Translations under genes and position numbers: made by a program
In this document: positions 38,796-53,147 of the stretch, piece by piece
How the letters are laid out: every line of letters starts with the position of its first letter
How positions within the stretch are numbered: the first letter of the stretch is position 1
Notes under the pieces: model-generated
Seen by the model: only the letters and a program-made list of their open reading frames with translations
What the model was told of the DNA's origin: nothing
Database searches by the model: none
Assembly (NCBI GenBank): GCA_030603385.1
Contig: JAUVXW010000003.1
Span: 64,001-128,000 of the forward strand
Direction: 5' to 3'
Source: Promethearchaeota archaeon
GTDB lineage: Archaea; Asgardarchaeota; Lokiarchaeia; Sigyniarchaeales; SOKP01
DNA: 64,000 bases

Positions 38796-41648
38796 TTAAA
38801 TTATTGTAACTTCTGACATTTCTCTTAGAACCTTGATATGATTGGTGAACTCATCATTCGAACATAGATTTAGTAATTCTTTCTTCGAAATTTCAGCAGC
38901 ATCATTTTTTTCTCTAAATTCAAAAGGCGAGAGAATACCAGAAGAACTCTTCTCCTTCAATTTATTAACTATTTTCTCAATTTCTTGGTTAAATTCATCC
39001 AAATTTTCTAAGTTTTCAGATAATGCTGCTGGAAGACTTGAATGTACTTTTTTCAAAGAATTTGAATACTTTAGAAGTGTCTTAGAAAATTCAAGTCTTG
39101 ATTCTATGATTTCATGCATTTTTTCTGATTCATCTAAGAGCTTAAACATAATTTCGTAATACTTAATTTCATTTTTATCTCTATTAAGAAATTTTGTTAA
39201 GTTGATAATTTTTTGAGATGCATCAAAATCCTTAAAATTTTCATAATCTCTAATTCTATTTTCAGTATCTTTGATATCGAGTTGAAGTTGTTCTAGTTTC
39301 TGGTTGCTTAGATATTTGTCTAATTTCATTATTTTTTTTTGGTATTCTTGTTCATCAAGAACTGTTCTTGTAGTTTCAAACACTTCTGGTAGCGGAGTAT
39401 ATAAATATTTTAGTAGCAATATATATATCGAATGTTCTGGATTAGCGACTTTGTAATCAAAGAATTCGATAGTATCAATATTTTCTCTTAAATCTACTAA
39501 TAGTTTAAAGAATTTTCTAATAGCTAACATATTTTGTTGGGCATCAAAAGCAATTTGATACATCTCTTTAAAATATTTATTATAAAATCTGTTTGCTAAA
39601 TCAAGTTTTTGAAGAAATGAATTTACAATTGGGATTAGTTCTCCTGTAAAACCTGATTTTTTATATTCAGTACCAATATCTTTTAAACGCTCTTCTTCAC
39701 GATATGTAATTATTTTAATTATTAACTCAGGAAAATCTTTTGTAACAATATCATATGTTTTTATGAAGTATCCTTTTTTACTTAGAACTGGAACGATTGT
39801 ATTAATTGTCATTGTCCGTTGTTGAATTGCTTTAAGATCTTCTGAAAGTATTCGGTTAATATGTTCATCGATATTTTGCTTTTTCTCAAAATTTGCAACT
39901 TTACGATCTTTTAATAATTGATTGAGTCTAATTCCTCTGATTTGCGCATTCCTACCACCAAACATCTCAATAAAAATTGTTCCAAGAATCCTAAAAGCCA
40001 AAGCTGCTGTTAATTTTTTATCTTTTTCCGCATTTATTAAAATCTGATTAGTCAACATTGTTAGTAAACGAAATATAAATGTTCTTTCTTTTTCTCTTGG
40101 AATTTCTTTTATTTTTTCATGATACTGCTCTTGTATTTGATCCACTGGAAACTTATTTTCCCATAGAAAATCTAAGATTCGATCTCCCTCTGGGTCTGAA
40201 AGGATATCAAGAAAACGAGGAATAATTTCTGCTATTGCATTAGCCCAACTAAAATGCTCTTTTGCCAAGGGAATTTCATCATGGAATTCCGCCAACAAAT
40301 CATGAATTAAACCTCCTTTCTCAATCATCTTAGGTCCATTATATCTACCGAGAGTGTGGATAAGTATTTCATCAAAATTTGGCTCTGAAGACAAAGGCAT
40401 ACGTACTTCTATCTTCTCTAAAAATGCCTTAAATAAGTTGAATAGGCTTCTAACTTTATGATTTGATCTATTTATAATAAATTGATTGATTTCTGCATTA
40501 TTTAAATTACTTAATTCATTTAAGGAATTTGCAAACATGATTGCTCCATTAAATAATAACTCTACTTTTTCGGGTTCATGATAAGAAGCTGTTTCTGAGA
40601 ATTTAAATAAAAATTTTGCTAGATCAGAGCCAAGATATTCTCTGTGTTGTTCTGGAATTTGATCAATTGCATTTAATAATTCTTCCATTAACATTTGAAT
40701 CATGTCCTGACCCACTATAAGAGAATATTTCTTTTCTGCTCGTTTCAAAAAAGCTTCAACATCTGTAAATTGAATTCGTTTTTCTTCTTTCCCTAACAAA
40801 TGAATTAGAATATCTTCTAAGCTTTCACATTTTTCAATTGAACCTCCATTCTTAATTTCATTCAAAAATGCTATAAATAAATCTAATATTGTAAAAAATT
40901 TGTTCTTACTTCTTTTTATTATTTCTTGATTGATTTGCTCCTTAGATATTCCATTTAGATTAGAAAGTGCCCTATTGAAAAATAATACATGATTTAATAT
41001 TCCCTCTAAGGTTTCAGCAGGTAGATTCTCAACATTTTGAGAGAACTTAAACAGATATTTAGGAATCTCAGAGCTAATATAATCTTGAATATTTTCATCT
41101 ACTTTAGAAAAGGTTGTTATTATTTTTTTTGAGTAATTTTGTGATTTTTCCTCTCCAATTTTGGTTTTAAAATTCTTCTCAGCACGTTTGATAAATAATT
41201 CTAAATCATTTAATTGAGCAATTTCAGCTTTATCTCCAAAAATATAAGTGAGAACATCTTCGAAATTTCTACCTTTTTCAAAAATTCCCCCATTTTTAGC
41301 TTTCTCAACTAGAATATTTAGTAAATCAGAGAGGTTTCGCACTTTATTATTGCTTCTCTTAATTAAAAGTTGATTCATTTGATTACTATCTTTATTTATT
41401 AAATCTCTTAGTGACTCTGCAAATATTGAAACGTGCTTTAGAACGTTTTCAACTATTCCTGGGGATACATCCTCAATTTCTTGAGAATAATTAAATATGA
41501 ATCTTGGGATCTCTGAACCAATAACACGTCTAAATGTAGCAGGAATTTCATTCGTAGTTTTTCTTATGGTTTCCAACGTGGATGTCGCTTGTGCTTCTCC
41601 CAATTTTTCTTTAAATTGTCTTTCAGCTCTTTTTAAAAAAACTTCCAT
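38796..41648 (-). CDS. Large hypothetical helical protein with three N-terminal 148-aa repeats
   Basis: 950-aa ORF; repeats begin at FLKRAERQF, FIKRAEKNF and FLKRAEKKY. Confidence 0.8.
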   Translation of the reverse strand: MEVFLKRAERQFKEKLGEAQATSTLETIRKTTNEIPATFRRVIGSEIPRFIFNYSQEIEDVSPGIVENVLKHVSIFAESLRDLINKDSNQMNQLLIKRSNNKVRNLSDLLNILVEKAKNGGIFEKGRNFEDVLTYIFGDKAEIAQLNDLELFIKRAEKNFKTKIGEEKSQNYSKKIITTFSKVDENIQDYISSEIPKYLFKFSQNVENLPAETLEGILNHVLFFNRALSNLNGISKEQINQEIIKRSKNKFFTILDLFIAFLNEIKNGGSIEKCESLEDILIHLLGKEEKRIQFTDVEAFLKRAEKKYSLIVGQDMIQMLMEELLNAIDQIPEQHREYLGSDLAKFLFKFSETASYHEPEKVELLFNGAIMFANSLNELSNLNNAEINQFIINRSNHKVRSLFNLFKAFLEKIEVRMPLSSEPNFDEILIHTLGRYNGPKMIEKGGLIHDLLAEFHDEIPLAKEHFSWANAIAEIIPRFLDILSDPEGDRILDFLWENKFPVDQIQEQYHEKIKEIPREKERTFIFRLLTMLTNQILINAEKDKKLTAALAFRILGTIFIEMFGGRNAQIRGIRLNQLLKDRKVANFEKKQNIDEHINRILSEDLKAIQQRTMTINTIVPVLSKKGYFIKTYDIVTKDFPELIIKIITYREEERLKDIGTEYKKSGFTGELIPIVNSFLQKLDLANRFYNKYFKEMYQIAFDAQQNMLAIRKFFKLLVDLRENIDTIEFFDYKVANPEHSIYILLLKYLYTPLPEVFETTRTVLDEQEYQKKIMKLDKYLSNQKLEQLQLDIKDTENRIRDYENFKDFDASQKIINLTKFLNRDKNEIKYYEIMFKLLDESEKMHEIIESRLEFSKTLLKYSNSLKKVHSSLPAALSENLENLDEFNQEIEKIVNKLKEKSSSGILSPFEFREKNDAAEISKKELLNLCSNDEFTNHIKVLREMSEVTII
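40317..41648 (-). repeat. Three tandem 148-codon intragenic repeats
   Basis: Gap-free manual alignment: KRAE, SEIP/SDLA-x-F/Y-x-F-x-F/Y-S, I-K/N-RS-x-x-K and EDIL-x-x-x-x-G recur with period 148 aa. Confidence 0.85.
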
Positions 41649-41958: not shown

Positions 41959-43722
41959 TTAATTATCATAAACTAAGGTCTCTGATTCTTTTTGTTCTAA
42001 TGCCTTCTTTTGCATCCAAACAGGGGGATTCACACACCAAATGTAATGTCCCTCTTCGATTGTTATTTTATGAGGCGTTTTACGCATACATTCTTTCGTT
42101 CTTGCATCTGAAATACACCGGGGATTAAAAGTACATCCTGAAGGAGGTGCAATTGGACTCGGAACCTCACCCTTAATAACAAACTTAATTTCTTTATCGC
42201 TAGGATCAAGCTCAGTTCTTGAAGCTAATAATGCTTGAGAATAAGGATGAGTAGTATTGGAAAATATTTGATCAGTCTCCCCAACCTCAACGAATTTGCC
42301 AAGATACATAACCGCAACTCTATCGGCAATGTGATTAACAACAGCTAAGTTGTGTGTTATAAATAAAAATCCGTAACCATAAGTTTTCTGCAACGCTTTT
42401 AACAAATTAAGAATTTGAGCTTGAACTGAAACATCTAGAGCGGATGTAGGCTCATCTAAAATTATTAATTCCGGATTACTTGCGAGGGCTCTCGCAATGA
42501 TAATTCTTTGTTTTTGACCACCTGAAAACTCATGAGGGAAGCGATCCATATGTTCTCGCTTTAAGGAAACTTCATCTAACAGTTTTAACACTCGTCTTCT
42601 AATTTCTTCTTTCTTGGTAATCCCTAATAAATTCCGCAGCGGTTCTGCTATGATATTAACAACTTTCATTCGAGGATTTAATGATGCATCAGGATCTTGA
42701 AAAACGATTTGAATTTTTTGTCTTAGAAATTTTGCATAATCATTAGGAATAGGTTCACCATTAAATATAATTTCACCTGCTTCTTTTGGAACTAATCCTA
42801 AAATAGCTTTCGCAATGGTAGTTTTTCCACAGCCACTTTCTCCTACTAAACCTACAGTTTCGCCAGTATTTATATTGAAAGTGACACCATCAACAGCTTT
42901 AACGGATCCAAACTGTCTTTTTAACATTCCTCCAATCAAAGGATAATAGACTTTTAAATTTCTTACTTCTAATAATTTTTGATTTTTTTCAAGAATATTG
43001 ATGTCTCTGTATTGATCGAAAGCTAAGTTGGATTGAGCTAAAATTTTTACGATAATGCTTACTATTATTGTGATTACTACCCCCCACACAAGATGAGTAA
43101 AAAAACCTTGGATGAAAGCTGCCTCTTTTAATTCAAATATGTGCGCCAAGTAATAGAATCCGGGTATTATCGTTATCATGATAATGGTATTTTTATTTGT
43201 TAGAAACTGGGCTTTATTTCCCCAATTTATGAAAAAACCATTAATACCAACTATAATCAACATTATTAAAAAAAGCGCCAAACCAGCTGAATATACATCG
43301 TCTTTTTCACTGGTGACCATAAGTCTTACTACATCATTAGTAATTCTCAATAAAAAACCCAAAGCATATAACATAGCCTGAAAACTAATGATAAGAATAG
43401 AAGATTCTATAAATTCTTTATTAGCTGATTTCGATACTATAATTGAGGATATCCCTATCGTTATCAAAATAACTATAAGATCAGAAATTATGGATAATGT
43501 AAATCCTGCTCCAAGAAAATAGAGAAATATGAATTTAAAAGAAATGTTAAGGAAAAACCAAATCAAATTCACAATGATTACAAAAGAATCATTCCAATCT
43601 TTTCTTTTCGCATATGCCTTTAAAAAAGACACCCCATAAAAAAGTACTAAAATAGAGATGAGAAATCCAATAACTAACTCAGATAAAAATAATCCCGTGG
43701 ATATATTTGATGGTATTTGCAT
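41959..43722 (-). CDS. oppF: OppF/DppF-type ABC ATPase fused to an N-terminal multi-pass membrane domain
   Basis: GESGCGKT, FSGGQKQR, ILDEPTSALD, ITHN and C-terminal PSGCTFNPRC; first ~240 aa carry about 7 hydrophobic helices. Confidence 0.88.
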   Translation of the reverse strand: MQIPSNISTGLFLSELVIGFLISILVLFYGVSFLKAYAKRKDWNDSFVIIVNLIWFFLNISFKFIFLYFLGAGFTLSIISDLIVILITIGISSIIVSKSANKEFIESSILIISFQAMLYALGFLLRITNDVVRLMVTSEKDDVYSAGLALFLIMLIIVGINGFFINWGNKAQFLTNKNTIIMITIIPGFYYLAHIFELKEAAFIQGFFTHLVWGVVITIIVSIIVKILAQSNLAFDQYRDINILEKNQKLLEVRNLKVYYPLIGGMLKRQFGSVKAVDGVTFNINTGETVGLVGESGCGKTTIAKAILGLVPKEAGEIIFNGEPIPNDYAKFLRQKIQIVFQDPDASLNPRMKVVNIIAEPLRNLLGITKKEEIRRRVLKLLDEVSLKREHMDRFPHEFSGGQKQRIIIARALASNPELIILDEPTSALDVSVQAQILNLLKALQKTYGYGFLFITHNLAVVNHIADRVAVMYLGKFVEVGETDQIFSNTTHPYSQALLASRTELDPSDKEIKFVIKGEVPSPIAPPSGCTFNPRCISDARTKECMRKTPHKITIEEGHYIWCVNPPVWMQKKALEQKESETLVYDN

Positions 43723-43799
43723 ATTAAATCCTTTTTTTCATAATTTTTCAATGTTTATATATTAATATTTTATTTTTCATTTACTCATTTATCTAAGAA

Positions 43800-46700
43800 T
43801 TAATTTTCTGCTTCTTTTATTGAGATCTCAGCGATATCCTTGTATTCAGGGTCATAAAGATGGCACGCTACAAAATAATCTGGTTCGATTTCTATGCTTT
43901 TAGGGGCCTTTGAATCACATGGTTCAAAACAATATTGACATCGAGGATGAAACCTGCAACCTGAAGGGGGATAAATCAAATTCGGTACCATTCCTGGTAT
44001 TACATCAAGCAATTCCCTTTTCTTCCCTATAACTGGTACAGATGATATAAGTCCCCGTGTATATGGATGATAGGGTGTGATAAATAATTTTTCTATGTCA
44101 CCATATTCAACGATGAATCCACTATACATTACAGCTACGCGATCACACATTTTAGAAATAATTCCTAAATCATGAGTGATAAAAAGTATCGAGGTGTTAT
44201 ATTTTTTCTTGAGGTTTTTCATTAATTGTAATATCTGGTTTTGAATTGTGACATCTAGGGCCGTAGTAGGCTCATCAGCAATTAATAGTTTAGGACTACA
44301 AGCAAGACCCATTGCGATTTGAACACGTTGTCGCATTCCACCACTTAATTCATGTGGATATCTATCAAATATTATTCGTGGAACGGGTATATTTAAATCT
44401 TTTAATATTTTTCTACTCCATTTTCTCGCAATATCATAGATACTTGTATTTTTTTTAACTGCTTCAATTAACAACTCATCCTCCATATGAAGACGATAAA
44501 CTTCGGCGATTTGATCCCCAATTTTATATACAGGATTTAACGAGTTAAGGGGATCTTGAAAAATCATAGTGATTTTATTTCCTCGATATTTTAGAAACTC
44601 TTCTTCAGTTTTATGATGCAGATCTTCTCCCTTAAAATATACTCTCCCACTCTTAATTTCACCTGGAGGACGAACCAATCGAAGGATAGATAACGCAGTC
44701 ACAGATTTACCACATCCTGTTTCTCCAACAAGACCGAGAGTCTCACCTTCATATATCTTAAACGAAACACCTTCTACTGCTTTAACTACGCCTTCCACTG
44801 TATAAAAATAGGTTGTGAGATCTTGAACATCTAAGATAGCCTCTTTTCTCTCTACCATAGTGTCTTGAAGCTGACTTTCTTCATAAGGTTTAAAAGCAGC
44901 ACTGAATCTATCGCTCATTTTCTCAGTAGAATCTGGCATAATCTGGATCCTTAAGGAACCAAGAATTGAAATAATATATATACCTGAAGCGACTAATAAT
45001 GGAATCCGGAGATCTGTAAAGCTATAATGATAAGAAATAATAAGGGATTGGAATAAACCTAGTATAAGACTCACACCTACGGTAGCTAAGTATACAACAA
45101 TTAGAGCGATTATCACAAATTTAAAAGATTCGGAAAATTTTCGTTTATACACCTTTCGAACTATTAATGTACCAATAATAATATTACTAACTGATATGAG
45201 AAATTCAATATATAAAATTGGGATTAACATATCATATTCTGTTGGCCAAACATGATCTGCCCAAAAAACGGAAAAGATTCTAGAATATGAAAACCCAAAT
45301 TCTGAGAAGGCTATAAATATAGAAACTCTACTGGCTACACTAAAAAAGAATAAAACTAAAGCAACCCTAGCGGCTTTCTTTTTAACAAATGATGCATTTT
45401 TCATTGACGCATCCCACATTTTTATTGATGTAGCATACCACCATATAATCCTAATACCTAACGTAAACATCACAATCGAGAGAATGGTAATGAATGTTAT
45501 GTTTAAGATAAATATCTCATTAATCAAGATAAATATATATAAATAGATTACAAGAAATGGTACAACCCAAATCCAATACGTTATAAATCCTCCAAAAAAA
45601 GCAGCGTGTTGAAGTAGTATTTTTGATGCCCGTTTGTTGACAGGATTCATCTTATTAAATAGATATGTAATAGATAGATCTGCAACAACCGTAAAAAGAG
45701 CACTCATACCACTTAGAAAAAGTACTCCTACCAAAGTATTTGAACTTAGAAGTATTTTAAATATCGAAATTATTATTATCGGTAAGCCCCATATTAATCC
45801 TATGATAATCTTATTTGAAGTAGTATTGAATTTACTCTCTAATAATGAAACATCATCTATTGATTGAGATTTATCAAATTTCCTTAAAAAATATATATAA
45901 ATTTTAAGGGAAATCCCTTGCGGAAAACGACGATCTTTATCCCCACTAATATCCTCTTGATCTTCTGATAGAAGTTCTTTTTCATTTGTATCCTGTTTTC
46001 TATTAAACTTCTTTAATTCAGATTCTAACAATTCTTTAACTCTTTTTTCACTTTTTTCACTAGCGTCAGGCAACAGTTTGCTTTTCAGTAAATTAAAAAA
46101 GACAGTAATATATAATCCTGTTACTACAATAGTTAATACTCGAATATCTTGCATAATAATTTGATATCCAAGCCATTTATGTATATATACTTCAAATATA
46201 ACAAGCTGAATAAACCAAATACCAAATGCAATAAACGCTCCTCCGTACATAGAATTTTTAAGTACCATTTTTTCTATTCGTTTCTCATCCACCAAGGTTC
46301 TATTAATTATTGATGTAATAATGATGCAAATGAAAACTACTCCAAAACTCCATAATACACCTAAGCTGAATTTATCAGGATAATTAGGAAACGAAGGATC
46401 CCTCAGTGAAATTTGAAGTAGTGTAATTGAAAGAAAAATTGCTGAAAAAGCCCATGCTATTATCATTAAAAAAAAAATATATTTCTTGAAACTGTAATTT
46501 TGGGGTCTTTCTTCATTTAAAACCTGTGAATAACCAAATTTTCCCAAAAATGGTTTATGGAGAAAGAAAAAGATCGTTACCATTATAGCAAAGTATAATA
46601 CATCATTATTTAGAATCCTAAATATATACCCATACATCCCTAAGGTTTCAAATATCATTCTGATACCCAATATGATACCGAAAATAATTAAGCTGGTTAC

Positions 46701-46853
46701 CAATGAACTTAATTGATATATTCTCACTAATGATTCCCCTTTAAAAGAAAACTTTACAAGAAAAATTAAAATCAGTAATAATAGCAGTAGTGAAAATAGA
46801 GATTCAATTATAGCATATCCGTAATTACCAACTTGAAATGTTATTCCAATAAT
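43800..46853 (-). CDS. oppD: OppD/DppD-type ABC ATPase fused to a very large N-terminal membrane domain (probable ATT start at 46853)
   Basis: GETGCGKS, LSGGMRQR, IADEPTTALD, ITHD and PSGCRFHPRC; more than 600 aa of hydrophobic N-terminus. The frame stays open 42 codons upstream of the GTG at 46727 and encodes another TM helix. Confidence 0.85.
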   Translation of the reverse strand: MIGITFQVGNYGYAIIESLFSLLLLLLILIFLVKFSFKGESLVRIYQLSSLVTSLIIFGIILGIRMIFETLGMYGYIFRILNNDVLYFAIMVTIFFFLHKPFLGKFGYSQVLNEERPQNYSFKKYIFFLMIIAWAFSAIFLSITLLQISLRDPSFPNYPDKFSLGVLWSFGVVFICIIITSIINRTLVDEKRIEKMVLKNSMYGGAFIAFGIWFIQLVIFEVYIHKWLGYQIIMQDIRVLTIVVTGLYITVFFNLLKSKLLPDASEKSEKRVKELLESELKKFNRKQDTNEKELLSEDQEDISGDKDRRFPQGISLKIYIYFLRKFDKSQSIDDVSLLESKFNTTSNKIIIGLIWGLPIIIISIFKILLSSNTLVGVLFLSGMSALFTVVADLSITYLFNKMNPVNKRASKILLQHAAFFGGFITYWIWVVPFLVIYLYIFILINEIFILNITFITILSIVMFTLGIRIIWWYATSIKMWDASMKNASFVKKKAARVALVLFFFSVASRVSIFIAFSEFGFSYSRIFSVFWADHVWPTEYDMLIPILYIEFLISVSNIIIGTLIVRKVYKRKFSESFKFVIIALIVVYLATVGVSLILGLFQSLIISYHYSFTDLRIPLLVASGIYIISILGSLRIQIMPDSTEKMSDRFSAAFKPYEESQLQDTMVERKEAILDVQDLTTYFYTVEGVVKAVEGVSFKIYEGETLGLVGETGCGKSVTALSILRLVRPPGEIKSGRVYFKGEDLHHKTEEEFLKYRGNKITMIFQDPLNSLNPVYKIGDQIAEVYRLHMEDELLIEAVKKNTSIYDIARKWSRKILKDLNIPVPRIIFDRYPHELSGGMRQRVQIAMGLACSPKLLIADEPTTALDVTIQNQILQLMKNLKKKYNTSILFITHDLGIISKMCDRVAVMYSGFIVEYGDIEKLFITPYHPYTRGLISSVPVIGKKRELLDVIPGMVPNLIYPPSGCRFHPRCQYCFEPCDSKAPKSIEIEPDYFVACHLYDPEYKDIAEISIKEAEN

Positions 46854-46869
46854 TTTTAATCCCTCTTAT

Positions 46870-47865
46870 TTATATATGTAATCGAGGATCTAAAGCATCC
46901 CTCAATCCATCACCTATTAACATAAACCCAATAGCTGTAATTGCAATAAAAAGCCCGGGCCAAAAAACTGCATAATATGCACCCCAATGACCCCTCCCAT
47001 AATTGATATCAGTGCCCCAATCTGCAAAAGATTCATCTCCTAATCCCAAGAAAGCAATGCCTACAAAACCTAAAATTGCACCTCCCATTGCTCCGAAGAA
47101 ACCAATGATGATAGGAGACATTGCATTTGGCAAAACATGTCTAAACATTACTTTAAATTTTTCCGCCCCACTAGTTATTGCAGCCTCGACATAGACATTC
47201 TGTTTTACTTGCAGCACTAGGGCTCTTACCCATCGAGTAGATCCTGGTATACTAAAAAGGCCGAAAAGTATCAGTATGTTATATAAACTATTACCAATGA
47301 GGGGTGCTACAATAATTACAAGAATTAATACAGGAAAAGAAAACCAAAAATCACAAAAACGCATTATTATTGAATCTATTTTTCCACCAAAATATGCAGA
47401 TATCGTCCCTACAGAAAGCCCTCCAAGGGTACCAATTATAACGGGTAAAGCCGCCGCTGTTAGTGCTGTTCTTGCGCCCCAAATTATTCTTCCAAGAATA
47501 TCAAATCCATATTCTGTTGTGCCTAATGGGTGTTCTGGCGAGGGGGGAAGGAATGGTGTCTCAGGGAGAAAATCGGGTGGTGTTAAATGATCTATTGTAA
47601 ATGTAGTTAACCAAGGAGCATACATACCCATAAAAGCAATGAATAAGATCATTACCATTCCAGCTATTGTCAAAGGCGTAAGTAGGCGTCTAAATAATTT
47701 CCTTTTAGATTTTATTTTCCCTATTTCAAATTCAGTAGCTTCAAATTCTGGATCCCGCCATCCAGGTACTAAGTAGAATTTTAACAATCTGGAGAACTTA
47801 TTCTTTTTGTCTGCTTGAGATTCATATCTTTTGGTTTCTTCTACAGAAATTTGCTTCAGTTTTAT
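46870..47865 (-). CDS. oppC: Oligopeptide ABC transporter permease OppC/DppC
   Basis: HPLGTTEYGFDILGR, YVEAAITSGA EAA loop, RHVLPN and GDGLRDALDPR; frame open upstream of TTG 47787 to ATA 47865 / CTG 47859. Confidence 0.92.
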   Translation of the reverse strand: MKLKQISVEETKRYESQADKKNKFSRLLKFYLVPGWRDPEFEATEFEIGKIKSKRKLFRRLLTPLTIAGMVMILFIAFMGMYAPWLTTFTIDHLTPPDFLPETPFLPPSPEHPLGTTEYGFDILGRIIWGARTALTAAALPVIIGTLGGLSVGTISAYFGGKIDSIIMRFCDFWFSFPVLILVIIVAPLIGNSLYNILILFGLFSIPGSTRWVRALVLQVKQNVYVEAAITSGAEKFKVMFRHVLPNAMSPIIIGFFGAMGGAILGFVGIAFLGLGDESFADWGTDINYGRGHWGAYYAVFWPGLFIAITAIGFMLIGDGLRDALDPRLHI

Positions 47866-47883
47866 TCACTTCCTTTATTTTTT

Positions 47884-48951
47884 TTAATACAAAATTCTTG
47901 GATCTATAATTGTATAGGCAACATCTGCAATGAGAGTTCCTGATATTATAATAATCGTTGAAAAAACAAGAAGTCCATTTATTACTAAATAGTCACCGCT
48001 TGTTATAGCTATCAGCATGGTGTATCCAAATCCAGTATAGTTAAATGTAACTTCTACATATAATGACCCTAATAGAGCTCCTGCGGTCCCTGCTATAACG
48101 AGATGACTGGTAGGGAGTATCGCATTTCGAAGAGCGTGTTTATTAATGACGTCTTTTTCCAAAACACCTTTAGCACGCGCAGTTCTAATATAATCCTGAT
48201 CCAGCACACCTAGCATACTAGATCGAGTCTGCCTCGTAATCCCAGATAAAGATACAAAAATCATACAAATTACTGGAAGAATTAAATGAACAAGTGTATC
48301 CCATAAATAAATCTGATCATTATACAAAATACTATCAATTAGTCTAAATCCTGTACCACTCCCTCCTGATGGAACCGGAGTATTCAATATCGGATTATTA
48401 GGTAATAACACCTCAATAAAAAATTTCTCATGGGTAAATGTCCTTAATTCAGAGCCAATAAATAATTGTAGCAGGGTGGCAATATAAAAGATTGGAAATC
48501 CTGCTCCAACGATTGCTATTCCTCTAATTAATGAATCTTTTGGCGTATCTTTATGTTTTGCAGAGGTAACCCCAAGTTTAATACCGATAATTGGTACTAT
48601 TATAATCGAAAATAGCATCAACTCTATCGTCTTTGGAAAAATCTGAGCAATTAATTCAATTACAGGTGTGTTTTCGGCTATAACAAACGATTCACCCCAA
48701 TCTCCAGCGAAAAACCTTCTAAGATATATACCGAGTTGTACATACCATGGATCGTAGAAACCAGATCTTCGCAATTCTGCTTCATATCTAGCACGGTCTA
48801 CCACAGTCCCAGGAATCTTATTCAATGCAGGATTAATAGACATCTGGTGAGATAAAATCCATGTAAATATCAATACTGCTATAAGAATAGGAAACATTAG
48901 TAAAATTCGTTTAATAACATATTTTATCATATTTCGGGCTTGACGAGTCAT
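47884..48951 (-). CDS. oppB: Oligopeptide ABC transporter permease OppB/DppB
   Basis: YVIKRIL, GDWGES, DYIRTARAKG, HALRNA and DVAYTIIDPRI motifs; GGAGG RBS. Confidence 0.93.
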   Translation of the reverse strand: MTRQARNMIKYVIKRILLMFPILIAVLIFTWILSHQMSINPALNKIPGTVVDRARYEAELRRSGFYDPWYVQLGIYLRRFFAGDWGESFVIAENTPVIELIAQIFPKTIELMLFSIIIVPIIGIKLGVTSAKHKDTPKDSLIRGIAIVGAGFPIFYIATLLQLFIGSELRTFTHEKFFIEVLLPNNPILNTPVPSGGSGTGFRLIDSILYNDQIYLWDTLVHLILPVICMIFVSLSGITRQTRSSMLGVLDQDYIRTARAKGVLEKDVINKHALRNAILPTSHLVIAGTAGALLGSLYVEVTFNYTGFGYTMLIAITSGDYLVINGLLVFSTIIIISGTLIADVAYTIIDPRILY

Positions 48952-49266: not shown

Positions 49267-51747
49267 ATGAATAAATCTACAAAAAGTATAGCTTTTTTCT
49301 TATTATTATCGTCAATAATCCTTCCAATTCTTCCAACAATTACAGTAGCTCAAGAAGAGAACATCGTTTTTAAAGTGTCTGCTTCGGCATTGCCAGATGA
49401 ATGGGACCCCGTAGTTACAGATTGGTACAATGTAATATATGGATCATACGCGGTATTTGCGGTCCAGTATCCCATTGGAACACCTGCGTATTACACCGCT
49501 GGAACACTAGGTCCAATAGAGGATGAGTGGGTCGGAATACTCGCTACTGATTGGGAACTTGAACGTTGGCCATCCGAGGAAAATAGCGCAGATCCACCAT
49601 TTAATAACTCAGGTGGAATAAGAACAGCTACATTTACACTTCGAGAGAATGTGACATTCCACGATGGATCCGATTGGAACGCTACAGTATGGAAATGGAA
49701 TATCGATAGAATGAATATTATTTCCGGAAATTATACCGGTAAATGTCGAAACACAGATGATAATGAAGCTGAAGGAAATCTTATGAACACCATTATCGTA
49801 GAAGATTATAAAACCTATTTTACAGAAACATGGAATATGACAAAATTTGACTCTCCATATCTTGGACTTATTCCGCCTGATCTGGGAAAAGAACCTAAGG
49901 TTACCGATTATGCCTATTATAATCTTGGACCTAATGCGTCCCTTGTCGAATATCCCGGCGTCGATGATATTTTACCAAATAATACTATACGCAATCCTGC
50001 CCCTTATGGAGGCTGGGATTATGTATCGGCTGCTGCCATACATTATGCGCCTTATGATAGATATCCTATTGTAGACTACGTGGAGATCCTTGAAAACCCA
50101 AAATCAGGAGGAAAGATTAAGGTTTACTTTAACCACTGGACCACTTCTGGACTAGCTGGGTGGGTGAATATGCCTATGCTTTCATACCATTCATATAGAA
50201 ATAGTTACACCACTAGAGGTATTTACGGGTATGAAAACGGCGTTGATGATGACCGAAATGCTGGACCAGTCACTCACATGATTGGCACAGGTCCCTACAT
50301 TTATATAGAGCACGATGAAACAGGTACACCCGCAGGGGGTTATATGTTAAAAAATGAGAATTACTGGAATAAAACCCTTCTTGAAGCCGATGGTTGGTTT
50401 GATGTTGATAGATACGAAGTTATTAATTTCCCTACAGGTCAATTAGGAGAAGATTCTAAAAATACAGCCATGCTTACACATGCTATAGATTTTGCATACG
50501 ATTCCATGTATATGCCTTTAGATTATGATGCTGTGTTAAGAAACAAAAATATTAGGTATGAGTCTACTGGGGCTACAACATATAAAACGAATATCGTACT
50601 GAATAGCATCAATGAAACATGGTGGGCATGGCCTGGGTATGATGCTTGGAGGAAAGTTCAATATCCTCGTGCTGGTGATAAACCTGCTGGTGGTGTTCCT
50701 CGAGCAATGCGAAAAGCGATGGGTTATGCGTTTAATTATGATCTTATGATACATACTGCTTTAAATGATCGCGCAGTTCGAGGTGGTGGGGTGCTAGGTA
50801 GCCCCAATATATATTATAATGACAGTATTCCCTTGGCAGATTATAATGTAACGAAAGCACGAGAAATTCTGCTTACCACTGAGAGTGACATATCAGGAGA
50901 AGTTTATACTACCATAGATGTTAATAGTTCATATTGGCCCAATCCCGATCTTTATAATTTCAGTAAAATGTGTGCCGATAGAAGTTTGACCGCAAGTAGC
51001 TCGGATGCTGATTGGCGATATATTGCTGACAACAATCCAATATACACACTTAACTTTTATTGGGATTCTGCTCATGAAGATGTAAAGAGTGTACTTCTAA
51101 CTTCTCTTCGAAATATTGGGTGTACTTTAAAAGACAAAACTGGAGCTACAAATAGGGTTACCACTATAATTTGGGATACAGTCCGTATTGGTCATTTGAC
51201 CACATTTGATGGAATCTATAGTCTCTTTTCTTGTGGTGCGTGGGTAATGGACGAGGACTTATCTCATACATCCCCTGAGTTAAATCTCTTTTGGGCTCAT
51301 GTTGATCCCGATAAAGGGAGATGGCGAACTTTGGGCGGTGGAGGGATCACGAGTTGGCACTATTGGGGTAACTTCGGATTTAATTTTAATGAACGAGCTG
51401 ATTATTATAATGATCGTATGTGGACTTCCGATCCAATGGAAAGAAAAATCTGGATTAATAAATTAGCACACGTCGAGCAAACCGTTGTTTTCCCAAAAAT
51501 CTGGTGTTATGAAGCATTGGGCGGATGGGCTCTATGGAAAGACTGGGAATTTTTTACAGTAAAGAACACAGGAGGACATAATACGGGTCTCTTTGGAGGC
51601 ATTTCAATCAGTTTCTTGAGATATGTAGGTCTTCCAGAAGATTTCGCATTAATTCCCGGAGCTCCATTACTCGTTACATTGACCATTTCAGCAGTTTCGA
51701 CACTCGGTATAATATATGCGATAATGAGAAAGAAAAAACTCAAGTAG
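49267..51747 (+). CDS. oppA: Family-5 (OppA/DppA) solute-binding protein with signal peptide and C-terminal IPG-TM-basic anchor (Loki-CTERM-like)
   Basis: FTLRENVTFHDG, IGTGPY, NENYW and RKAMGYAFNYD motifs; ends IPGAPLLVTLTISAVSTLGIIYAIMRKKKLK. Confidence 0.88.
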   Translation: MNKSTKSIAFFLLLSSIILPILPTITVAQEENIVFKVSASALPDEWDPVVTDWYNVIYGSYAVFAVQYPIGTPAYYTAGTLGPIEDEWVGILATDWELERWPSEENSADPPFNNSGGIRTATFTLRENVTFHDGSDWNATVWKWNIDRMNIISGNYTGKCRNTDDNEAEGNLMNTIIVEDYKTYFTETWNMTKFDSPYLGLIPPDLGKEPKVTDYAYYNLGPNASLVEYPGVDDILPNNTIRNPAPYGGWDYVSAAAIHYAPYDRYPIVDYVEILENPKSGGKIKVYFNHWTTSGLAGWVNMPMLSYHSYRNSYTTRGIYGYENGVDDDRNAGPVTHMIGTGPYIYIEHDETGTPAGGYMLKNENYWNKTLLEADGWFDVDRYEVINFPTGQLGEDSKNTAMLTHAIDFAYDSMYMPLDYDAVLRNKNIRYESTGATTYKTNIVLNSINETWWAWPGYDAWRKVQYPRAGDKPAGGVPRAMRKAMGYAFNYDLMIHTALNDRAVRGGGVLGSPNIYYNDSIPLADYNVTKAREILLTTESDISGEVYTTIDVNSSYWPNPDLYNFSKMCADRSLTASSSDADWRYIADNNPIYTLNFYWDSAHEDVKSVLLTSLRNIGCTLKDKTGATNRVTTIIWDTVRIGHLTTFDGIYSLFSCGAWVMDEDLSHTSPELNLFWAHVDPDKGRWRTLGGGGITSWHYWGNFGFNFNERADYYNDRMWTSDPMERKIWINKLAHVEQTVVFPKIWCYEALGGWALWKDWEFFTVKNTGGHNTGLFGGISISFLRYVGLPEDFALIPGAPLLVTLTISAVSTLGIIYAIMRKKKLK

Positions 51748-52631: not shown

Positions 52632-53147
52632 CTATATTTTTTTTCTGCCTACACTATATCGTTTAAGAAGCATACCACATATAGCCCCTGAGATGGCTAT
52701 TTCAAACAAAATAATTATGTCAAGCCATCCTCTAATATTACCAAATTTTAGGATAATCGGTTCTGTTGAAAAGCCAAACATAATAGCATAAAATATGAAA
52801 CCTTCTGCAATAAGAAGAGGTACCAGCCAGATGGATGCTTTAATTCCATAATGAGCTATTTCTTGTTTATATGTTAACACAAAACATACCAAAAACAACA
52901 CTAAAGCGGGTAAGAAGAAAGTTTTCAAATATGTTGTCCAAGTCCAAAAAAGTATGGTTCTATCCATATCAGTATAAGAGATCCATTCTTCATAATAATA
53001 ATCATACATCATAATGTTGGCGATAATTCCGTAATAACATAAAAAAGCAAAAATATACAAAAAAATAACACCCCCTTGTCGTCCCCAGTCAATTTTTATA
53101 TGACCTTTTGCTTTATAATCACTTTTTTCAATCTTCTCTGTTTCCAT
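52632..53147 (-). CDS. Hypothetical 4-TM membrane protein
   Basis: 171 aa, four hydrophobic segments, basic C-terminal tail. Confidence 0.75.
   Translation of the reverse strand: METEKIEKSDYKAKGHIKIDWGRQGGVIFLYIFAFLCYYGIIANIMMYDYYYEEWISYTDMDRTILFWTWTTYLKTFFLPALVLFLVCFVLTYKQEIAHYGIKASIWLVPLLIAEGFIFYAIMFGFSTEPIILKFGNIRGWLDIIILFEIAISGAICGMLLKRYSVGRKKI

Follow-up and report, generated by a model that had tools for sequence, protein, structure and literature searches.

Both ATPases of a Predicted Lokiarchaeial Peptide Importer Are Fused to Clade-Restricted, Predicted Membrane Modules

Introduction

Among the importers of peptides within the ATP-binding cassette (ABC) superfamily, the closest described relatives of the system considered here are DppBCDF and OppBCDF of Escherichia coli and OppABCD of Mycobacterium tuberculosis (Transporter Classification [TC] 3.A.1.5; structures 8Z1V, 8Z21, and 8J5Q; PMC12136057), which have two BPD_transp_1 permeases, two oligo_HPY ATPases, and a family-5 binding protein. 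The same set is encoded in the stretch of DNA that we analyzed, a 64,000-nt window (positions 64,001 to 128,000 of contig JAUVXW010000003.1) that is part of a Lokiarchaeial (Promethearchaeia) metagenome-assembled genome (MAG; GCA_030603385.1) of 3.9 Mb in 58 contigs. In this locus the two ATPases, OppD and OppF, are fused at their N-termini to long regions that are predicted to span the membrane many times.

To our knowledge, the ATPases of type I ABC importers are soluble, in textbooks as well as in all structures that have been solved. Additions to the core of type I importers do occur, such as the extra helices of MalF and the binding domains fused to the permeases of GlnPQ and OpuA, and these accessory parts leave the mechanism unchanged. 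As far as we know, such additions sit on the permease and not on the ATPase, and none is a domain of 7–15 transmembrane (TM) helices. Cultured Loki-type Asgard archaea have been reported to live by the uptake and fermentation of amino acids and peptides, and peptide importers are for this reason likely central to the physiology of such archaea.

Results

Intact ATPases Follow Long N-Terminal Extensions

Four co-oriented genes on the minus strand (41959-48951) match OppB, OppC, OppD, and OppF in Pfam. The open reading frames (ORFs) of OppD and OppF, both on the minus strand, are uninterrupted under translation table 11, and table 4 adds nothing to them. Residues of OppD are counted from GTG 46727, its first canonical start, unless stated otherwise. 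The parts of the two proteins, with predicted TM helices, are as follows.

OppD:
46083-46844, minus strand: D module 1, seven TM helices, one of which is encoded upstream of the GTG (alignment A3, 27 sequences)
45828-46082, minus strand: charged linker between the membrane halves, ~85-93 residues with 20 K/R and 19 D/E, cytoplasmic by loop analysis
45534-45812, minus strand: second D module, a partial copy, residues 306-398 (hhalign 98.6%, E 1e-15 against D 85-182)
45033-45503, minus strand: F-type 4-TM module inside the second D module, residues 409-565 (hhalign 98.0%, E 3e-13 against F 15-138)
44919-45014, minus strand: last helix, TM15, and PDSTEK motif, a repeated copy of module 1's final helix
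43800-44810, minus strand: ATPase proper, residues 640-975, ABC_tran and oligo_HPY with a four-cysteine motif (Pfam)

OppF:
43309-43680, minus strand: mobile 4-TM module, residues 15-138, with motifs WYAKxKxWD after TM1 and KxYxKEFxES after TM3
43018-43305, minus strand: TM5-TM7, residues 140-235, from hydropathy and loop charges, with a conserved cytoplasmic NWGxKxQ loop and a PGxYY helix
41959-42957, minus strand: ATPase proper, residues 256-587, ABC_tran (4e-36) and oligo_HPY (3e-15) with four cysteines

Both ABC_tran and oligo_HPY score above the curated Pfam cut-offs in each protein. They occupy residues 278-427 and 478-537 of OppF (587 aa; ORF 41959-43722) and residues 652-822 and 873-937 of OppD (975 aa from the GTG). 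The Walker A, Q-loop, signature, Walker B, and H-loop motifs are intact in the two translations, those of OppF including GESGCGKT, FSGGQKQR, LIILDEPTSALD, and ITHNL, which bears out an earlier reading of this DNA, made from the letters alone (hereafter the sequence-only reading), that uninterrupted ORFs retain the Walker and signature motifs. The best solved relatives of the OppD ATPase domain are M. tuberculosis OppD (8j5q_D, 3e-107), E. coli OppD (8z21_C, 3e-81), and DppD (8z1v_C). In E. coli DppD, C284, C290, C297, and C315 hold a [4Fe-4S] cluster (PMC12136057). At the level of the motif, the cysteine spacing of OppD (0, +6, +13, +31) is identical to that of DppD, and the spacing in OppF (0, +6, +15, +33) is off by 2-3 residues from that of DppF (0, +6, +13, +30; PMC12136057); both proteins carry a putative four-cysteine Fe-S tail.

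OppD and OppF Are Predicted to Be Polytopic Membrane Proteins

Hydropathy, the positive-inside rule, and AlphaFold models agree on 15 TM helices in OppD, arranged as seven helices, the charged cytoplasmic linker, and eight more, and the same three lines give seven helices in OppF. The sequence-only reading had estimated ~670 aa with ~15 or more helices and ~240 aa with ~7 helices; the extensions now measure ~680 aa and ~250 aa, with the helix counts upheld. In both proteins, the N-terminus is predicted to be outside and the ATPase inside. Loops of OppD that are predicted to be inside are rich in K/R, with three to seven each and 20 in the long linker, and those predicted to be outside are poor, with zero to two.

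The models were built from alignments of 61 (OppD) and 32 (OppF) related sequences. The model of the OppD N-terminal region (684 residues) has 15 long helices, a predicted local distance difference test score (pLDDT) of 76.8, and a predicted template modeling score of 0.71, with pLDDT falling below 50 in the linker at model residues 284-302. In the membrane part of the OppF model, pLDDT per 10-residue block ranges from 72 to 93, and the blocks of TM5-TM7 are mostly at 84-93. With accessory modules fused in front, both ATPases are thus predicted to be integral membrane proteins. The ATPases of described PepT members are soluble peripheral subunits; here, 15 and 7 predicted TM helices precede them.

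The Extensions Are Built from Two Kinds of Module

Profile comparisons resolve OppD into a predicted seven-TM D module, the linker, and an incomplete second copy of the D module, split by an inserted F-type 4-TM module. A hidden Markov model (HMM) of module 1 matches D 275-420 with an independent E-value (i-E) of 9e-12 among the 6258 ORFs of the genome. The partial copy at 306-398 holds two TM helices, an amphipathic NKRASK stretch, and the first part of the GGFITYWIW helix. Farther along, an HMM of the last helix of module 1 (PDxSEK) matches D 572-603 at an i-E of 9e-4, the next unrelated match in the genome being at 0.06. The internal repeats that the sequence-only reading had picked out are therefore both significant in profile tests (E 1e-15 and i-E 9e-4). 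The module that it had seen as shared between OppD and OppF is significant as well (hhalign E 3e-13), and an HMM built from OppF sequences alone matches D 408-564 at an i-E of 2e-8. Between TM15 and the ATPase of OppD lies a cytoplasmic linker of ~40 aa. The long form of OppD would have arisen by a partial duplication of the D module and insertion of an F-type 4-TM module in the second copy, which would yield the 15 helices.

Conservation in the two kinds of module differs in location. Six residues of D module 1 are invariant in alignment A3, namely N7, Q213, E218, Q232, D233, and R235 (counted from ATA 46844), and in the predicted topology each of the six falls at the end of a helix on the outer side of the membrane. 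In OppF, conserved residues are mainly in cytoplasmic loops (W43 and NWGxKxQ), and W167, G168, K170, Q172, P187, and G188 are near-invariant (alignment A2).

OppD Probably Begins Upstream of Its First Canonical Start

The frame of OppD opens at a stop located 4 nt past the stop of OppC, and its 46 open codons 5' of GTG 46727 encode an extra hydrophobic TM helix, NYGYAIIESLFSLLLLLLILIFLV, with an NYG motif before the helix. None of these 46 codons is ATG, GTG, or TTG. The helix is kept, with no stops, in all 28 loci of relatives that have the region, as well as in cluster P0049, and the second codon position is the least variable in this stretch (0.20 vs. 0.41 and 0.42). Since the upstream helix is conserved, free of stops, and least variable at second codon positions, the longer reading of OppD, with ~1014 residues and an extension of ~680 aa, is probably right.

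Translation of the helix very probably starts at a near-cognate codon, for which ATA 46844, ATT 46850, and ATT 46853 are candidates. The column of ATA 46844 is ATG in eight loci and ATA in nine, with the window counted. Locus L012 has an ATG two codons upstream of this column, aligned to ATT 46850 of the window, and locus L035 has a stop four codons ahead of the ATA position. ATT 46853, one of the 46 open codons and the end coordinate given to OppD by the sequence-only reading, is a reasonable choice. With 4 nt between the stop of OppC and the opening of the frame, reinitiation after termination of OppC is a conceivable way to start OppD across 46728-46868 (minus strand).

The Fusions Recur in Independent Assemblies and Are Restricted to a Clade

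Out of 1.84 billion representative sequences, only 44 were matched by residues 1-625 of OppD. In a word-indexed search, the extension matched 40 clusters (formed at 90% identity), nearly all of ~1000 aa and with the same ATPase tail, and such OppD-like clusters come from independent ENA, JGI, NCBI, and Logan assemblies. The first 250 residues of OppF matched 14 clusters of ~587 aa. Full-length fusions in other assemblies are 35-94% identical along the whole length; a scan of metagenomes returned relatives at 58-60% identity only, and a scan with a single protein returned three MAGs only. Of 400 Asgard genomes, 42 have the D module, including 39 of the 134 genomes in the family of the window, and 35 have the F module, which adjoins the D module in the same loci. 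Relatives are labeled by their sources as Lokiarchaeota, Promethearchaeota, or Promethearchaeia, save for two records of Hodarchaeales/Hodarchaeota. The fusion architecture is, with hardly any room for doubt, real and conserved.

The D and F modules are restricted to a clade, evolve fast, and vary in how many copies are present. Across three genome pairs, identity is 29-69% in the modules, 74-91% in the ATPase domains, 55-90% in OppB and OppC, and 27-70% in the binding protein, whose divergence is roughly as fast as that of the modules. A short form of OppD (~640 aa), with a single D module, occurs more widely than the long form (~1000 aa) and is also found as a paralogue in the same genome as the window; it is for these reasons probably the older state. 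The genome has four Opp loci. One has the short form, with 6-7 and 7 helices on its ATPases, and another has three TM helices on each ATPase. Outside the Opp loci, no TM helices were found on the other importer-type ATPases of the genome.

Two further loci of the same genome have unusual forms of importer proteins. In the fourth Opp locus (C51:35834-37318, minus strand), the ATPase domain of OppF has an insert of ~130 residues with two TM helices (residues ~90-215), and its OppD partner has a charged insertion of ~50 residues with no TM helix. A 646-aa ORF (C36:6231-8171, minus strand) matches both OppB (4e-42) and OppC (4e-28) and may be a fused OppBC permease.

The 4-TM module is a mobile unit. 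It is free-standing in genes of 145-165 aa in loci L067 and L068, away from transporters, a form that is rare (3 clusters in a large protein collection). A 448-aa permease of a different type of ABC importer (L065:628-1971, plus strand; genome G180, contig C97) carries the module at its C-terminus, and the module is therefore common to different families of ABC importers. A 687-aa OppF (L063:565-2625, minus strand; genome G130, contig C106) has three tandem 4-TM modules before the ATPase, in a stretch that is partly masked (X).

The Modules Match No Described Family

Searches for known relatives yielded nothing specific. No Pfam family was found at E up to 5 for any module or for the free-standing 4-TM proteins, and no sequence in PDB matched the N-terminal region of OppD at E up to 1. 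Foldseek against PDB gave a best E of 0.5 with TM-scores near 0.1. Structural alignment with VIA, in which modules were compared as parts of larger models, gave only generic matches to helical bundles. The best (Z 10.3, root-mean-square deviation 3.6, 132 aligned residues) pairs the 4-TM part inserted in OppD with the N-domain of WbaP (8t53_A), a generic four-helix membrane bundle. Matches to exporter folds, TmrAB at Z 6.5 and BmrA at Z 6.0, are at the noise level for helical bundles. No claudin is among the 50 VIA matches listed, where the 4-TM unit was likewise compared as part of a larger model. In ESM Atlas, the OppF module matched only unnamed clusters, at scores attainable by shuffled proteins.

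No published description of such fusions was found in literature drawn largely from outside subscription journals, and a targeted reading of a survey of Asgard transporters (PMC7997004) met with no mention of them. The proposal of the sequence-only reading that the architecture is undescribed thus holds as far as Pfam, PDB sequences, Foldseek, VIA, and the papers searched are concerned.

The Translocation Core Is Ordinary

The remaining genes of the importer are as follows.

46870-47787, minus strand: OppC permease, BPD_transp_1 (3e-30), whole profile covered (Pfam)
47884-48951, minus strand: OppB permease, BPD_transp_1 (3e-32), whole profile covered (Pfam)
49267-51747, plus strand: family-5 substrate-binding protein, 826 aa, SBP_bac_5 (1e-20, Pfam), divergent from the opp genes
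52632-53147, minus strand: 171-aa 4-TM protein with KIDWGRQG and TYKEDIPHYGIKAS motifs, a probable sixth, membrane subunit

The locus is predicted to encode a PepT/Opp-type type I ABC importer (TC 3.A.1.5) with an ordinary translocation core. OppB and OppC, described by the sequence-only reading as canonical, are both full-length BPD_transp_1 permeases with their coupling loops and are 76-88% and 73-90% identical, respectively, to their same-genus orthologues. The binding protein has a signal sequence at the N-terminus and a TM anchor at the C-terminus, with hydrophobic peaks at residues 8 and 801. The gene order of a 950-aa repeat protein, OppF, OppD, OppC, OppB, and the divergent binding protein recurs in two same-genus genomes, and in one of them (G227) the 171-aa membrane protein and the AbrB-ligase gene come next too. 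The 950-aa protein 3' of OppF (38796-41648, minus strand; syntenic in G187 and G227) is without any Pfam match, and in tblastn its N-terminal portion aligns with itself when shifted by about 148 residues.

The 171-aa 4-TM protein is probably a sixth subunit of the importer, judging from its genomic neighborhoods. In two other Opp loci of the same genome (C6:172838-173452 and C51:40804-41394) and in G233, a homologue lies immediately upstream of OppB; in the window, the gene of the binding protein sits between the 171-aa gene and OppB. In at least 25 loci, strong matches of the 171-aa protein are 2.7-6 kb from a match of the D module on the same contig. The family, of 171-204 aa, has this place next to OppB in many Opp operons of Lokiarchaeia and is present in 93 of the 400 Asgard genomes and in 88 of the 134 in the family of the window. 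It has no Pfam family at E up to 5, and hhalign found no relation to the D or F modules. Distant paralogues in G248:C7, G247:C42, G210:C51, G249:C11, and G182:C72 each have a single in-frame TGA (TAG in one) in an otherwise full-length match, which could be due to a broken gene, selenocysteine, or recoding of the stop codon.

The G+C content of the window is ~33%, and the standard code (table 11) fits. Because the G+C content is low, genetic code 4 (TGA=W) was tried; it gained only spurious ORFs and table 11 holds. No tRNA genes were found in the window.

Discussion

The Modules as Accessory or Scaffold Elements

We suggest, with a probability of roughly 0.6, that the modules form accessory or scaffold parts at the periphery and not a route of transport. 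Each ATPase would hang below its permease as usual. The N-terminal modules would sit in the membrane at the periphery of OppBC, tether the ATPase, and enlarge the membrane sector, and they would not be a second substrate pathway. The conserved polar patch of the D module at the outer face may be in contact with the anchored binding protein or with permease loops on the outer side.

Several observations support an accessory role. The 4-TM module varies in copy number and in partner, being free-standing, attached to another permease, in triplicate, or within OppD. The modules evolve faster than do the ATPase domains and OppB and OppC, the permeases match the whole Pfam profile, and the invariant residues of the D module are all at the outer ends of helices. 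Other considerations weigh against this role. The position and contacts proposed for the modules are inferred, and the alignments behind the AlphaFold models are shallow (61 and 32 sequences). A 680-aa domain kept intact under selection is much for a mere anchor. Q213 and E218, polar and invariant within a helix, could equally mark a site for binding or for ions. Lastly, the divergence of the modules tracks that of the binding protein in three genome pairs only, which is anecdotal.

Two more specific forms of the accessory role are each held tentatively. That the outer-face patch docks or tethers the binding protein is possible, if somewhat doubtful. We would place similarly modest trust in a larger scheme of six-gene complexes with ~39 TM helices, in which the ATPase modules and the small 4-TM subunit would form a site at the outer face that docks or tethers the binding protein or helps to hand over substrate. 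If true, this scheme would add a new class to the accessory domains of type I ABC importers.

Alternative Explanations

The main rival is that the modules are sensors or regulators that detect a cue from outside the cell or from the membrane (e.g., a peptide, the state of the lipids, or the membrane potential) and gate ATP hydrolysis via a short linker. They would resemble regulatory domains of other importers, except for being in the membrane. In favor of this role, residues that are both polar and invariant (N7, Q213, E218, and QDxR) gather on the outer face and within one helix; against it, conservation in the F module is mostly cytoplasmic. An amphipathic cytoplasmic element, NRxLxxEKRIxK, is conserved in both D copies, and the modules run directly into the first strand of the ATPase; nonetheless, no known sensor fold or family was matched in Pfam, Foldseek, or VIA, and the modules differ freely in number and composition from paralogue to paralogue and from species to species, an unusual feature in a tuned sensor. 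We consider a sensory role unlikely.

A second possibility is that OppD and OppF, with their membrane regions, pair as a heterodimeric half-transporter, such that the locus encodes an importer plus a second route for, e.g., hydrophobic or lipidated peptides. A membrane domain followed by an ATPase is the order found in ABC half-transporters, modules always come on both ATPases, and there are weak structural echoes of exporter helices in TmrAB (Z 6.5) and BmrA (Z 6.0). However, these Z values are at the noise of helical bundles, and neither ABC_membrane nor any other transporter family was matched in Pfam. The cytoplasmic loops are short and offer no candidate for a coupling helix that would replace those of the intact OppB and OppC. 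Furthermore, the D and F modules are mutually unrelated save for the 4-TM unit, there are three-helix versions in a paralogous locus, and the evolution of the modules is too rapid for them to be a path for substrates. A second route is accordingly very improbable. The sequence-only reading had proposed that the modules sense, or that they handle lipidated or hydrophobic substrates, and we found no evidence that supports either idea.

That the long ORFs are artefacts of misassembly, a frameshift, or a wrongly joined membrane gene, a concern that the sequence-only reading had raised and that a MAG with an estimated contamination of 7% invites, is next to impossible because the same full-length fusions are present in dozens of independent assemblies (35-94% identity), in 42 of 400 genomes, and in paralogues of the same genome.

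Comparison with Known Transporters

ATPases made polytopic by predicted membrane domains that have no known relatives should be of interest to specialists in transporters. The history of the modules, with duplication, insertion, free-standing copies, and fusion to other ABC parts, clearly illustrates the recruitment of new membrane domains to a long-established machine.

In the order of their parts, OppD and OppF are like the half-transporters of type IV exporters, such as TmrAB and BmrA, in which a membrane domain and then an ATPase form one chain and two different chains are encoded side by side. Unlike in those exporters, the ATPases of the Lokiarchaeial locus are importer-type with an oligo_HPY tail and separate importer permeases are present, and there is no likeness in sequence and no convincing likeness in fold. 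No family of exporter transmembrane domains matched the N-terminal regions of OppD and OppF in Pfam, even at E up to 5.

By its core, the predicted importer belongs in the PepT family, and its add-ons are without counterpart there. In the solved DppBCDF, OppBCDF, and OppABCD, the ATPases are soluble and of ~330 aa (a fused pair in mycobacteria), whereas here ~680 and ~250 residues that are predicted to be polytopic in the membrane stand in front of them. Relative to Dpp and Opp of E. coli and OppABCD of M. tuberculosis, the Lokiarchaeial locus also adds an extra 4-TM gene and a binding protein with a TM anchor.

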